Below, in pieces: positions 15,956-54,861 of a stretch of DNA of 64,000 bases. This stretch comes from Escherichia coli (GTDB taxonomy: Bacteria; Pseudomonadota; Gammaproteobacteria; Enterobacterales; Enterobacteriaceae). The stretch lies in NCBI RefSeq assembly GCF_030013595.1, contig NZ_CP122768.1. One strand, written 5' to 3'. Under the pieces are notes generated by a model. That model did no database searches and was not told the DNA's origin. It saw only the letters and a list, made by a program, of their open reading frames with translations. The position numbers and the translations under genes are program-made. Every line of letters begins with the position of its first letter. Position 1 is the first letter of the stretch.

Positions 15956-16501
15956 GTGGACGATTTGACCGCACAAGCCCTGAAAGATTTTACTGCACGC
16001 TACTGCGATGCGTGGCATGAAGAGCATAAAAGCTGGCCGTTGAGTGAGGAACTGTACGGCGTTCCTTCACCGTGCATTATTTCAACCACCGAAGACGCCG
16101 TATACTGGCAACCCCAGCCGTTTACCGGGGAACAAAATGTAAACGCGGTTGAACGCGCTTTTGATATTGTGATACAACCCACAATTCATACCTTTTATAC
16201 GACTCAGTTTGCCGGGGATATGCACGCGCAGTTTGGCGATATTAAACTGACATTGCTGCAAACCTGGAGTGAAGACGACTTCCGTCGGGTGCAGGAAAAT
16301 CTGATTGGTCATCTGGTGACTCAGAAAAGGCTAAAACTGCCGCCCACGCTATTTATCGCGACGCTGGAAGAAGAGTTAGAGGTCATCTCGGTGTGTAATC
16401 TCTCCGGTGAAGTGTGCAAAGAGACGCTGGGAACACGTAAACGGGCGCATTTAGCCTCAAATCTTGCGGAATTCCTTAATCAACTTAAGCCTCTTCTGTA
16501 A
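15956..16501 (+). CDS. syd: SecY-interacting protein Syd
   Basis: 181-aa ORF recognised as Syd. Confidence 0.9.
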
Positions 16502-16520
16502 TCCAAATACCCCATCTGGT

Positions 16521-16538
16521 TGTGAGAGATCTCTTACA
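16521..16538. promoter_or_regulatory. 18-bp palindrome TGTGAGAGATCTCTTACA, candidate UvrY (BarA/UvrY response regulator) binding site for csrB
   Basis: Perfect inverted repeat about 180 bp upstream of the csrB 5' end; matches my recollection of the conserved UvrY/SirA box. Confidence 0.55.
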
Positions 16539-16711
16539 GACTCTGTAGGAGATCGCCAGGAAATAAGCGAATACTTAAAAAGATAAGAATCGTTATTTTC
16601 ATTTAAAATCAATATATTGCTTGTTAATCCTTAACTTTCATATGAAATTTTCCTTAAGGCATTGTCTGTAAGCGCCTTGTAAGACTTCGCGAAAAAGACG
16701 ATTCTATCTTC

Positions 16712-17077
16712 GTCGACAGGGAGTCAGACAACGAAGTGAACATCAGGATGATGACACTTCTGAAGGACACACCAGGATGGTGTTTCAGGGAAAGGCTTCT
16801 GGATGAAGCGAAGAGGATGACGCAGGACGCGTTAAAGGACACCTCCAGGATGGAGAATGAGAACCGGTCAGGATGATTCGGTGGGTCAGGAAGGCCAGGG
16901 ACACTTCAGGATGAAGTATCACATCGGGGTGGTGTGAGCAGGAAGCAATAGTTCAGGATGAACGATTGGCCGCAAGGCCAGAGGAAAAGTTGTCAAGGAT
17001 GAGCAGGGAGCAACAAAAGTAGCTGGAATGCTGCGAAACGAACCGGGAGCACTGTGAATACAGTGCTCCCTTTTTTT
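16712..17077 (+). ncRNA. csrB: CsrB small RNA (CsrA-sequestering sRNA)
   Basis: Begins GTCGACAGGGAGTCAGACAACGAAG; more than a dozen CAGGATG/AGGA motifs spaced through ~360 nt; ends in a GC hairpin (17045-17070) plus T7 run; located between syd and yqcC. Confidence 0.85.
17045..17077 (+). terminator. Rho-independent terminator of csrB
   Basis: gggagcactg-tgaata-cagtgctccc stem-loop followed by ttttttt. Confidence 0.8.
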
Positions 17078-17122
17078 ATTCCTGCTATCCTTCGCGGCAG
17101 TTTTTCTTATTGAGGTTGCTTT

Positions 17123-17452
17123 ATGACCACTCATGACCGCGTTCGTCTCCAGCTGCAGGCGCTTGAAGCATTACTGCGTGAACATCAGCACTGGCAAAAC
17201 GATGAACCCCAGCCGCATCAATTTAACAGTACCCAACCGTTCTTTATGGACACCATGGAACCACTGGAGTGGTTGCAGTGGGTGCTGATCCCGCGAATGC
17301 ACGATTTGTTAGATAACAACCAGCCGTTACCGGGCGCTTTTGCCGTTGCACCCTATTATGAAATGGCGCTGGCGACGGACCACCCGCAACGCGCGCTTAT
17401 TCTGGCTGAGCTGGAAAAACTGGATGCTCTTTTTGCGGATGATGCGAGCTAA
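17123..17452 (+). CDS. yqcC: DUF446 family protein YqcC
   Basis: 109-aa ORF recognised as YqcC. Confidence 0.85.
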   Translation: MTTHDRVRLQLQALEALLREHQHWQNDEPQPHQFNSTQPFFMDTMEPLEWLQWVLIPRMHDLLDNNQPLPGAFAVAPYYEMALATDHPQRALILAELEKLDALFADDAS

Positions 17453-23430: not shown

Positions 23431-26187
23431 TTACCCGAGAATTTTGCTGGCTTCGCGCGCTACATTATCCATCTCGTCCAACAGTTCCAGCAGCTCCGGC
23501 TCCAAATCTTCTTCTTTAGTACCGCTACGTAGCTGTTGTTCGATCAGCTGGCAGAGATTCTTCATACGCGGCACACCGCTATAGCCGCAACTGCCATGCA
23601 GTTTATGAATCAAATCAACCAGGCCTTCCGGGTTTTCTCCAACCAGCTGTTCCTCAACTTTGTTGCGAACTTCAGGCAGGAAATCGAGTAACATTTGCAG
23701 CATATCGCGCGCTAAATCGGTTTTTCCTGCTGCCTGGCGTAGTGCCAGTTGCCAGTCGAGGGTCGCATTCGGGTTCACCACAATTTCGTTGACTTCGGGC
23801 GTCACGACGCGAGACGAAATACCGCTGCCAGGCTTGTAGCGCAACAACAAATTATGCAATCGCTCTTCTTCAATCGGTTTCGCCAGATAATCGCTCATCC
23901 CTGCGCCAAGCAGCTTCTCTTTTTGCCCGGCCATTGCATGCGCCGTTACCGCGATAACTGGCGTTTGTTGCTGATGGGGGAGCTGGTGGATGAGTTCGCA
24001 GGCCCGAATGCCGTCCATGTCCGGCATTTGAATATCCATTAAGATCAAATCGAACGGCATCTGTTTCGCCCGTTCAACCGCCTGATGCCCGCTATCGCAA
24101 AGTTCCACATGTTGCACCATATCTTCCAGCAATGCGCCGATAAGTTTCAGGTTAGCGGGGTTGTCATCAACCGCCATGACTGTCATTGCCAGCTTACTTT
24201 CATCGGTTACAGGCAAAAGCGTGTTTTGTTTGTGATGACAAAATTCCGTCAGGGCAGGTAACAGGCGCGTAGGTGTTAATGGTTTCAGCAGACACGCGCC
24301 GATACCATCTTGCTTAAGTTTTTCAGCATTGACTTGTGCATGGCAAGGAAGTGCCAGCATCAGAAAATCGGTCATCGATACCGCTTTCGCTAATCGCTCA
24401 TGTTGCATTGTTAGCGGCTCGCGGAAGGTCACCGCAATGCCTAATAACATCATGTCGTAATGCGCGGGAGGCAGCGCGGAGAACGTTGGGCTATAAACCA
24501 CTTCCAGCGGCGTTTCACTTAAAATATCCAGCGTGCATTGCGCTGCTGCGGAGTTTGGTTCGACATAGGCCAGGCGCTTGCCGGCGAGGCACTGGGTGGA
24601 TGGCCCTTCGATAATAATGTTCGGATTCAGATCGAGATTAATGTGGAACCAGAAAGTTGAACCGCGATTCGGCTGGCTATGGAACGAAATATCGCCGCCC
24701 ATTTCATTAACCAGTTTTTGTGTAATCACCAGCCCCAGCCCGGTGCCACCATGACGGCGGGAAATACTGGCATCAGCCTGTCGGAAGGCCTGGAATAAGC
24801 GCGATTGATCGCGTTCAGGAATACCAATGCCGGTATCCCGAATCTGCACTTCAATCTGCACTTTGGTATTACTCAGCGCACGTTTTTCTACCAGAATATC
24901 AATGTTGCCATTCTCGGTGAATTTAATTGCATTCCCCACCAGGTTAGTGATGATTTGCTGTAATCGTAGTGGGTCGCCGATAACGTTATCAGGCACGTCG
25001 CTCTTAATATTGAGCGTCAGTTCCAGCCCTTTATCGTGAGAAGAATGTGCCAGCAGGGTAACGACTTCATCCAGCGTGCTGCGTAGTGGGAATGGAATAC
25101 TTTCCAGAATCAGCTTACCTGCTTCCAGTTTCGAGAAGTCGAGAACATCATTAATAATTGCCAGCAAATTATTTGCCGAACGTTCAATCGTATTCAGGTG
25201 ATCGCGCTGCGTTGGTGTTAATTCTGTTTTCAGCGTCAGGCGGGTAAAGCCAATAACACCATTCAGTGGTGTACGCAGCTCGTGTGACATATTTGCAAGA
25301 AACTCGGATTTAATACGCGCCGCTTCCTGGGCGCGCTTTTTCGCCAGATCCAACTCAACGTTCTGAATTTCCATCTGCTCCAGCGTTTCACGCAGATCGG
25401 ACGTCGCCTGGTCGATATTGTGCTGCATCTCTTCGTGATAAGCAGCCAGCGACATTGCCATCGAGTTGATACCGTTTTTCAGCATATCCAGCTCGCCGAG
25501 CATAAATCCTTCCACACGGCTGTCGAGTTGCCCGCGACGGATGCGGTCGACGGTATTCACCATATTGCGAATCGGACCGGTTACATCGCGCATTAAGCGC
25601 CAGCCAAAAATAAGCGCAATACCGATACAAAACAGCATCATCACGCTGGAAATAAAGATCTCTTTATATTGCTGCAAGCGAACCGATTTAAGATCCAGCT
25701 CAAGCGCAATATATCCCAACATATTTTGACTATTTTTGGCATCGCTACTGGGCGATTCGTCGGGGGAGTAACTCTCAGAAATAATCGGCGTGCGGAGGAT
25801 CATAATATCGCCGTCACGAGTGACAGTGAGCTGGCGAGGAAACGGCACGTTGCTGCCGAGCTGCATTGATGAGGGATCAAGATGAAAATTGGAGGTGACA
25901 AAGAGTCGGTTATTTTCATCATAAACCGAAATCGCGCGAACAATATCGGAATGGCGACGATGCAGTACGCTTATTAACTGACCGATAGATTCGCGATTTT
26001 GCAGGCTCATGCCATATTCAGTAGAAACTGCAAGCGGCTCAATAATGCTGGCACCGGCATCTTCCAGTTGACGCTGCAAGTCGTTATAGCGATGCACAAC
26101 GAAAAAGATACTCAGCAATAAACCAATAAGGACGGTCGGTGCCAGGATCAGAATCATCATGCGTGCGCGCAGGCTGTAGTTGGTCAT
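23431..26187 (-). CDS. barA: Hybrid sensor histidine kinase BarA
   Basis: 918-aa ORF recognised as BarA. Confidence 0.95.
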
Positions 26188-53140: not shown

Positions 53141-53349
53141 TGCGAGCAGCATTCCTGATTTTAAACGTGAACGCCGCTGGAAGAATTATCAGGTATAGAA
53201 TGGCGTTGGGTGCTTGAGGCTGTCTGGCGTTAAGCATTCGCGAGGTTCCAGATGGACAAAAGCCCCAGGCGATATTTCTATCAACCTGAGGCCAGCGTTC
53301 GAACCCAAACAATTCGAATGTTAGTCTCTTCTTTGCAGGGAGGCAAGGC

Positions 53350-53502
53350 ATGCTGACAAAATATGCCCTTGTGGCAATCATAGTGCTGTGTTTTACAGTA
53401 CTGGGATTCACGCTGATGGTAGGCGACTCGTTGTGTGAGTTGAGTATCAGAGAACGTGGTATGGAGTTTAAGGCAGTTCTCGCTTACGAATCGAAGAAGT
53501 AG
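53350..53502 (+). CDS. Hok/Gef-family type I toxin (50 aa), cysH-proximal hok locus
   Basis: [50 protein letters not shown]: single TM helix plus conserved SLCE...R....E..A...YESKK Hok signature; below the 60-aa cutoff of the ORF track; 34-codon upstream ORF (53252-53356) ends ATGcTGA over its start (mok-like). Confidence 0.6.
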
Positions 53503-53523: not shown

Positions 53524-54861
53524 CATAAGCGCTAACTTAAGGGTTGAACCATCTGAAGAATGCGACGCCTCGGTGCCTCGTTAAGACGATGCCTCGCGTT
53601 CTTCAATTGCGTTTTGTAGGCTGTCAGGGATACTGTCCCACGAATGGCCACCTGTAAGCTCCAGATGACCATTTTTGTTATTCTCCACAACGAGTTAGTT
53701 CTTCTTTTCGGATCCGGCACTTCTGGGGGGAAATCCAGCGATGGCTGGATTATGTCGTCAATTAAAAATGCGGCGAGTAGATTAGCAAATATCCACGCTT
53801 TCGCGAGTTCAGGTTCCTTTGCACGCAAAGCATCCAGGTGCAGCAAACTTTTGAGCCGCTTAAAAGCCAGTTCAATTTGCCATCGCAGACGGTAACAATC
53901 AGCCACTTGCTCTGCTGAATATTCATCTTCCGGTAATGATGTTAGCAATAGCACATGGCCCGCTGCTTCCAGCGTTTCCGCCTGAACTACTCGTCCTTTT
54001 CGACGATTCTCGCTGAGCAGTCGGGTTTTACTGATTAATGCTTTTTCGGGAGGAAGTGATACGGCAATGAGACGTGCCGGAAAGGGAGCTCCGGCTTTTT
54101 TATTACCTGAATTGCCTATCATTACAGTGGTTTCACCGTTCTTACCGCAATCCAGCCCGCGCAGAAAACCCATCATGTCAAAGCGCATTCCTTCTGCAGT
54201 TAACCAGCGCAATCCTCGCCAGTGAACCCGGACGATATAATCAGCTTCTCCAAAAGCAAGTGAGCGGATACATTCGGGACGCGAACCGAATCCCCGGTCA
54301 GCAATGCGTATCTCGTCTGCCGTTTGCGCAAATCGGTCCAGCCGTTCAGCGTCTCTGCTGTCGGTTAGCTCAAAATCAGTGAACTGACAGGTATGAGGAT
54401 CATATCCCATATGTAGTCGCCATTCAGCGCTGCCGCCCCCGGGCGCACTGATTGCTGTTCCATCGACAAGACGCAATCTCTTTCCGCTTGTACAACCCGT
54501 AACTGCGGCGCGTACAGCAAGTGTTTGTGCGGCAAGTATGCCAAACCAGTCGGCGGCATTCCGCAGCCGCTTCAGGAGAGCCACGTCAGATAATGTTGCA
54601 ACGTCATGGAGCTGAGCCCATGCAGTGACTTCACGTAATGACATCCCCCCGGGGCCGTAAGCCAGCCCCAGACGTAGCAGAGTTGCAGCATCACGAATTT
54701 CGCGGCGGCGGGTTAGAGCCCCGGCATTACGTGCCGAAGTATCCAGTTCTTCGGGCTTACCAATATGGGCCAGAATTGCTGACCAGTTATCGTGAGAGTA
54801 ATTCATCGGCACGTTAAATCATATCAGGCGTAATACCACAACCCTTAAGTTAGCGCTTATG
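53524..54861 (-). mobile_element. IS186 (IS4 family) insertion sequence, about 1.34 kb
   Basis: Terminal inverted repeats CATAAGCGCTAACTTAAGGGTTG at 53524-53546 and 54839-54861; flanked by direct repeats GGGTAAAACC; single transposase ORF. Confidence 0.85.
53532..54644 (-). CDS. insL: IS186 transposase (DDE, IS4 family)
   Basis: ORF 53532..54812 (426 aa); start at MSLREVTAWAQLHD would give the 370-aa form I recall for K-12 InsL; the longer in-frame extension may or may not be translated. Confidence 0.8.
   Translation of the reverse strand: MSLREVTAWAQLHDVATLSDVALLKRLRNAADWFGILAAQTLAVRAAVTGCTSGKRLRLVDGTAISAPGGGSAEWRLHMGYDPHTCQFTDFELTDSRDAERLDRFAQTADEIRIADRGFGSRPECIRSLAFGEADYIVRVHWRGLRWLTAEGMRFDMMGFLRGLDCGKNGETTVMIGNSGNKKAGAPFPARLIAVSLPPEKALISKTRLLSENRRKGRVVQAETLEAAGHVLLLTSLPEDEYSAEQVADCYRLRWQIELAFKRLKSLLHLDALRAKEPELAKAWIFANLLAAFLIDDIIQPSLDFPPEVPDPKRRTNSLWRITKMVIWSLQVAIRGTVSLTAYKTQLKNARHRLNEAPRRRILQMVQPLS

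Follow-up and report, generated by a model that had tools for sequence, protein, structure and literature searches.

The 64,000-nucleotide stretch of Escherichia coli DNA analyzed here (the window) contains csrB, a small RNA gene of 369 nt, on the + strand at 16712-17080, between syd and yqcC. A cmscan search against all families of Rfam 15 placed the CsrB model (RF00018, gathering score 71 bits) at 16721-17080 (+) with 382.9 bits (E = 2.2e-111); the match spans model positions 1-356 of 356, and no non-canonical pairs were flagged. The sequence-only reading of this DNA had called the region a CsrB sRNA and named an Rfam search as the way to check the call, which the full-length match bears out. 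The csrB gene of K-12 MG1655 (b4408, NC_000913.3 2924156-2924524) has the same length and the same flanking genes, and the two loci align ungapped with 99% identity over 691 nt, including 367 of the 369 RNA positions. The earlier reading had located the region correctly, whereas its length of 366 nt gives way to the 369 nt of the K-12 annotation, in which the last 3 nt follow the T-run.

In a megablast search, 5425 of 5426 complete E. coli genomes contained the segment 16450-17130, many of them with 100% identity, and in every match it lay between syd and yqcC. In RefSeq records annotated by PGAP the syd-yqcC interval carries no feature at all. The gene order of the window, syd-csrB-yqcC-truC-yqcA-gudPXD-barA, is that of K-12. 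Downstream, the yqcC start follows on the same strand, only 43 nt past the 3′ end of csrB (17081-17123 lying between), and a scan found no promoter-like site ahead of it; transcripts running past the csrB terminator could add to the expression of yqcC-truC-yqcA.

Within 16712-17080 the trinucleotide GGA occurs 22 times, including 14 AGGA, 8 AGGATG and 6 CAGGATG. Across the window, 369 nt hold 5.2 GGA on average, and outside the csrB region the count peaks at 13. Dinucleotide shuffles gave 0.37 AGGATG expected (shuffle maximum 3) against the 8 observed. The plain GGA count exceeded that in dinucleotide shuffles of the csrB region itself by a moderate margin only (22 against 15.2 +/- 2.5, z ~2.7) because the region is G/A-rich; the AGGATG enrichment and the contrast with the remaining window sequence are the informative tests. 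TCC occurs only twice in the same interval, so the GGA bias is strand-specific. Successive GGA motifs are spaced 4-32 nt apart (median 14, mean 15.5) and strict AGGATG motifs 23-47 nt apart; the array of CAGGATG/AGGATG motifs noted earlier is thus present, and the interval of 15-25 nt given for it holds only approximately. The interval +263-369 holds five GGA motifs, of which the terminator contains one, in agreement with the counts in PMC5027483.

The minimum free energy (MFE) fold of the RNA has -119.9 kcal/mol (z = -4.3 against 100 dinucleotide shuffles), with GGA in the loop of 9 of its 14 hairpins and at least 2 unpaired nucleotides at 19 of the 22 GGA. In the Rfam consensus, GGA occupies the loop of 11 of the 12 hairpins, the terminator being the exception. 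From aligned csrB sequences of 15 Enterobacteriaceae genera, RNAalifold derived a consensus of 72 pairs, 20 of which were compensatory, with both sides changed and the pair kept. Sequence, structure and covariation here show the RNA step of the explanation, an untranslated RNA of 369 nt with 22 GGA motifs, roughly half of which sit in short-hairpin loops, the geometry that CsrA prefers for binding.

GGA hairpins are common to the families of the Csr/Rsm clan, and small open reading frames do occur in the region (46 aa at 16736-16876 on the + strand and 71 aa on the − strand), so that the GGA-rich stretch might be read as a clan member of the CsrC, RsmY or RsmZ type or as a short coding region. 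We give either of these a negligible chance. In the competition within clan CL00106, where the best-scoring family alone is retained, CsrB wins with its full-length match, and the K-12 annotation at the corresponding place is csrB. Indels among genera are 1-2 nt long, not multiples of three, and occur together with the compensatory stem changes, a pattern of non-coding sequence on which the small open reading frames were rejected as coding sequence. The locus is csrB itself rather than a csrB-like gene, and nothing in the sequence evidence speaks against that identity.

The RNA ends in an intrinsic terminator at 17045-17077 (+), recovered by the terminator scan, by Rfam and in the alignment. 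It has an 11-bp stem with 7 G-C pairs and a 4-nt loop (stem and loop 17045-17070), followed by T7, and it substantiates the strong terminator that had been read at this end. The stem is invariant in the 15 genera. One of the two RNA positions differing from K-12 lies in it: at 17051 (+340) the window has A, forming an A-U pair, where K-12 has G in a G.U pair. The A-U pair is common to the window and 14 other genera, and it is the K-12 laboratory strain that deviates. At the other position, 16763 (+52), the window has A and K-12 has C; A is the Rfam consensus.

Between GGA 21 and the terminator lies the stretch AAACGAACC (17036-17044, +), unpaired in both the MFE and the consensus folds. Decay of CsrB begins with RNase E cleavage at A327/A331, described as the ‘necessary cleavage site’; this site is shielded by CsrA bound at GGA 20/21, a block that CsrD lifts (PMC5027483). 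When these positions are mapped onto the window with +1 at 16712, A327 falls at 17038 and A331 at 17042, both of them A here, and GGA 20 and GGA 21 begin at 17007 and 17025.

Upstream of the RNA gene, an 18-bp near-palindrome, TGTGAGAGATCTCTTACA, occupies 16521-16538. Its centre lies at -183/-182 from the 5′ end annotated in K-12 (16712), which confirms the position of about 180 bp upstream given in the sequence-only reading. That reading had also called the palindrome perfect; the element is there, but 8 of its 9 pairs match, positions 4 and 15 (G and T) being non-complementary, and ‘nearly perfect’ is the better description. Compared with the TGTAAGN6CTTACA consensus, it has a single half-site departure (G4). 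A full-text search for the 18-mer returned one paper, Zere et al. 2015 (PMC4682653), in which the identical sequence upstream of E. coli csrB is described as a ‘nearly perfect’ palindrome centred at -183/-182. ChIP-exo and DNase I footprinting identified it there as a specific site of phosphorylated UvrY (UvrY-P), and UvrY binding in vivo was BarA-dependent, being ~35-fold lower without BarA (PMC4682653). The SirA box of Salmonella csrB is the same 18-mer, at a published position of -182/-181 (PMC4682653).

Symmetry by itself says little about this element. The 64-kb window contains 12 18-mers in which 8 or more of the 9 pairs match, against 6.8 expected, so the symmetry of TGTGAGAGATCTCTTACA alone is not above chance and was rejected as evidence; the meaning of the element comes from the published footprint and from its conservation. 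Its position invites another reading, in which the inverted repeat is a terminator or other 3′ element of syd rather than a control element of csrB, since it starts 20 nt after the syd stop codon (16499-16501) and, as RNA, a G4/U15 wobble would allow a 7-bp stem with a GAUC loop. The stem would, however, be A/U-rich and no T-run follows, and the terminator scan did not report the repeat. The published footprint of UvrY-P on the 18-mer also argues against a syd element, as does the linkage of the 18-mer to sRNA genes in other genomes, amid varied neighbour genes and in both orientations. The missing T-run, the terminator scan and this linkage led us to reject the repeat as the syd terminator, and we regard a role in syd as next to impossible.

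The linkage emerged from a scan for exact copies of the 18-mer, with one genome per species, which gave at least 121 occurrences in other Gammaproteobacteria. The listed copies belong to Enterobacterales, Shewanella, Photobacterium, a small number of further taxa and Vibrionaceae, where one genome can hold as many as three. A GGA-dense region, defined as a flank with 13 or more GGA per 300 nt (background 3.6 +/- 2.9 per 300 nt), adjoins 113 of the 121 listed exact copies. Among the matches listed, the densest 300-nt window starts a median of 171 bp from the 18-mer centre (IQR 158-183), and the 113 GGA-flanked copies comprise 84 oriented as in E. coli and 29 reversed. Rfam made a CsrB call next to the box in 11 of the 13 loci tested. 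The Rfam CsrB match starts 174.5-191.5 bp from the 18-mer centre in eight Enterobacterales loci and one unclassified metagenome-assembled genome; Citrobacter, E. albertii and Klebsiella give values of 190.5-191.5 bp, and the window itself gives 191.5 bp.

Two genomes show where the covariance models stop. Vibrio breoganii has the exact 18-mer three times, each beside a GGA-dense region, two of which are called by Rfam; in Shewanella gelidimarina the GGA-dense region (23 GGA per 300 nt) received no CsrB call at the Rfam gathering threshold. These missed calls are a limit of the model and not counterevidence to the association of box and sRNA, and the 18-mer box picks up Csr-type sRNA genes with greater sensitivity than today's covariance models do.

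A third half-site, TGTAGGAGATCG, follows at 16544-16555 (+), 5 bp to the promoter side of the 18-mer. Zere et al. described a further TGTAGGAGA 5 bp downstream of the 18-mer (PMC4682653), and this sequence is found at 16544-16552 in the window. Its TGTRRGAGATCG is conserved in 19 Enterobacterales genera, the genera of an upstream alignment that were not chosen for the third half-site. Among the matches listed, a TGTRAG-like third half-site always faces the sRNA; in 67 of 114 loci the TGT stands at offset 5.

The box and the third half-site each contain a GATC, one at the centre of the 18-mer (16528-16531) and the other at 16551-16554, 23 bp away. Both are kept in all 19 aligned Enterobacterales genera, GAGATC being the form of the third half-site, and a GATC stands at the third-half-site offset in 49 of 114 loci among the matches listed. 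Binding of UvrY-P and Dam methylation might conceivably compete here and make csrB activation methylation-sensitive, a proposal that we consider quite unlikely. If it were true, Csr control would gain a methylation layer, through hemimethylation after replication or through cell-to-cell heterogeneity. The conservation of GATC is explained equally well by base recognition by UvrY alone, and a literature search for a link between csrB or UvrY and Dam or GATC found nothing relevant.

In the upstream alignment of 19 genera only five conserved islands were seen: the 18-mer, TGTRRGAGATCG, TCA-N5-TTA, TTGTAAGAC and GATTCTAT. The third of these is the core of a match to the IHF consensus, AATCAATATATTG (WATCAANNNNTTR), at 16607-16619 (+; -105 to -93). 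The window has 9 matches to this consensus against 2.5 expected, and the match is therefore weak and not significant by itself; its TCA-N5-TTA core is conserved across Enterobacterales. Zere et al. placed a putative IHF site between the upstream and the promoter-proximal (-56 to +25) UvrY crosslink regions, and CsrB was ~10-fold lower on loss of IHF (PMC4682653). From pattern and conservation, 16607-16619 is probably the IHF site that they marked, and DNA would bend there between the UvrY box and the promoter. Four further differences from K-12 (16613, 16616, 16620 and 16629) fall in this A/T-rich -100 region, two of them in the N4 spacer of the IHF match, and the core consensus is kept. The UvrY box, the third half-site and the promoter-proximal 90 bp are identical in K-12 and the window.

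The core promoter region (16667-16707, +), which falls within the promoter-proximal UvrY crosslink, is marked by conserved blocks, of which TTGTAAGAC (16677-16685, +) is a candidate -35 element and GATTCTAT (16700-16707, +) a candidate -10 element; we infer the hexamer assignment from block conservation. A scan of 16400-17200 for the sigma-70 consensus found no promoter, which fits the activator dependence of the csrB promoter. TGTAAG, half of a UvrY box, occurs twice, at 16667-16672 (-45 to -40) and at 16678-16683 (-34 to -29), the second copy belonging to the conserved TTGTAAGAC block. Both lie inside the promoter-proximal ChIP-exo crosslink of UvrY, a region in which the inverted repeat was described as ‘not preserved’ (PMC4682653).

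Between the IHF-like site and the promoter we observed a perfect 12-bp palindrome, TTTCATATGAAA, at 16636-16647 (-76 to -65). In the upstream alignment, Citrobacter and Pluralibacter retain it, E. albertii has an altered form, and Klebsiella and Enterobacter lack it; a literature search for it returned unrelated primer matches only. Zere et al. inferred an additional factor from failed in vitro transcription (PMC4682653), and TTTCATATGAAA, with its weak conservation, is a possible candidate site for that factor.

The sensor kinase that phosphorylates UvrY is encoded in the same window by barA (23431-26187, −), identical to K-12 BarA at 918 of 918 aa. Its nearest edge lies 6.35 kb downstream of the csrB 3′ end. 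The distance of 6 kb pointed out in the sequence-only reading is right, and its value as evidence lapses, this being the ordinary gene order of E. coli: BarA acts in trans, and the linkage of csrB and barA is incidental, a matter of shared gene order. A tblastn search of the 64-kb window with a UvrY sequence gave no match; UvrY is therefore not encoded in the window.

Elsewhere in the window, a CRISPR array at 36323-36716 carries the E. coli type I-E repeat GAGTTCCCCGCGCCAGCGGGGATAAACCG with a period of 61 and ~6.5 copies (Tandem Repeats Finder). Rfam identified a sok antitoxin RNA (RF01794, 112 bits) at 53208-53365 (+), which overlaps the start of an intact 50-aa Hok-like open reading frame at 53350-53502; 53208-53502 is a chromosomal toxin-antitoxin locus of the hok/sok type, right after a cysH-like open reading frame. 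Between this locus and a 345-aa open reading frame lies one of 426 aa (53532-54812, −), presumably resembling a transposase of the IS186/IS4 family. K-12 has cas3 and the type I-E cas operon where the 426-aa frame sits, and the source strain seems to lack the cas genes at this site.

Comparison with other csrB loci and with related families sets the E. coli gene in context. The csrB loci of other Enterobacterales have in common with the window the third half-site, the IHF-like core, the TTG and GATTCTAT blocks and the terminator, whereas the sequence between conserved blocks diverges freely and some genera have extra hairpin units, such as an insertion in Pseudocitrobacter csrB. CsrC of E. coli, CsrB/C/D of Vibrio and RsmY/RsmZ of Pseudomonas (CL00106) likewise have multiple GGA hairpins that sequester CsrA/RsmA, and these relatives are likewise driven by BarA/GacS-UvrY/GacA through an upstream palindromic box (the GacA box being TGTAAGN6CTTACA); they are, however, shorter and have fewer GGA motifs than E. 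coli CsrB. The box of E. coli csrC differs from that of csrB in its weaker symmetry, and IHF is not needed there (PMC4682653). The exact E. coli 18-mer occurs 2-3 times per genome in Vibrio, each time beside a GGA-dense region, among the matches listed.

Every feature defining CsrB/RsmB RNAs and the UvrY box that can be tested in sequence was found at this locus. We hold it to be almost certain that the region is the E. coli csrB locus, with activation by BarA, UvrY-P and IHF and titration of CsrA as the best explanation; this finding is already known. As described in the literature for essentially identical sequence, BarA, stimulated by short-chain carboxylates (formate, acetate), would phosphorylate UvrY, and UvrY-P together with IHF would activate csrB (PMC7652899, PMC4682653). 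UvrY-P would bind the 18-bp inverted repeat at -183/-182, and IHF at around -100 would bend the DNA and allow the distant UvrY-P to reach a weak promoter. K-12 CsrB binds and sequesters multiple CsrA dimers (PMC5027483, PMC7652899), and the RNA made from this locus would, on the same published grounds, titrate CsrA off its mRNA targets. Decay, with the positions mapped from the literature, would begin as RNase E cuts at A327/A331 before the terminator, a step that CsrA at GGA 20/21 would block and CsrD would overcome. No new biology follows from the csrB locus, which matters here only as the correct annotation of the RNA that is the main antagonist of CsrA, the global regulator of carbon metabolism, biofilm formation, motility and virulence.
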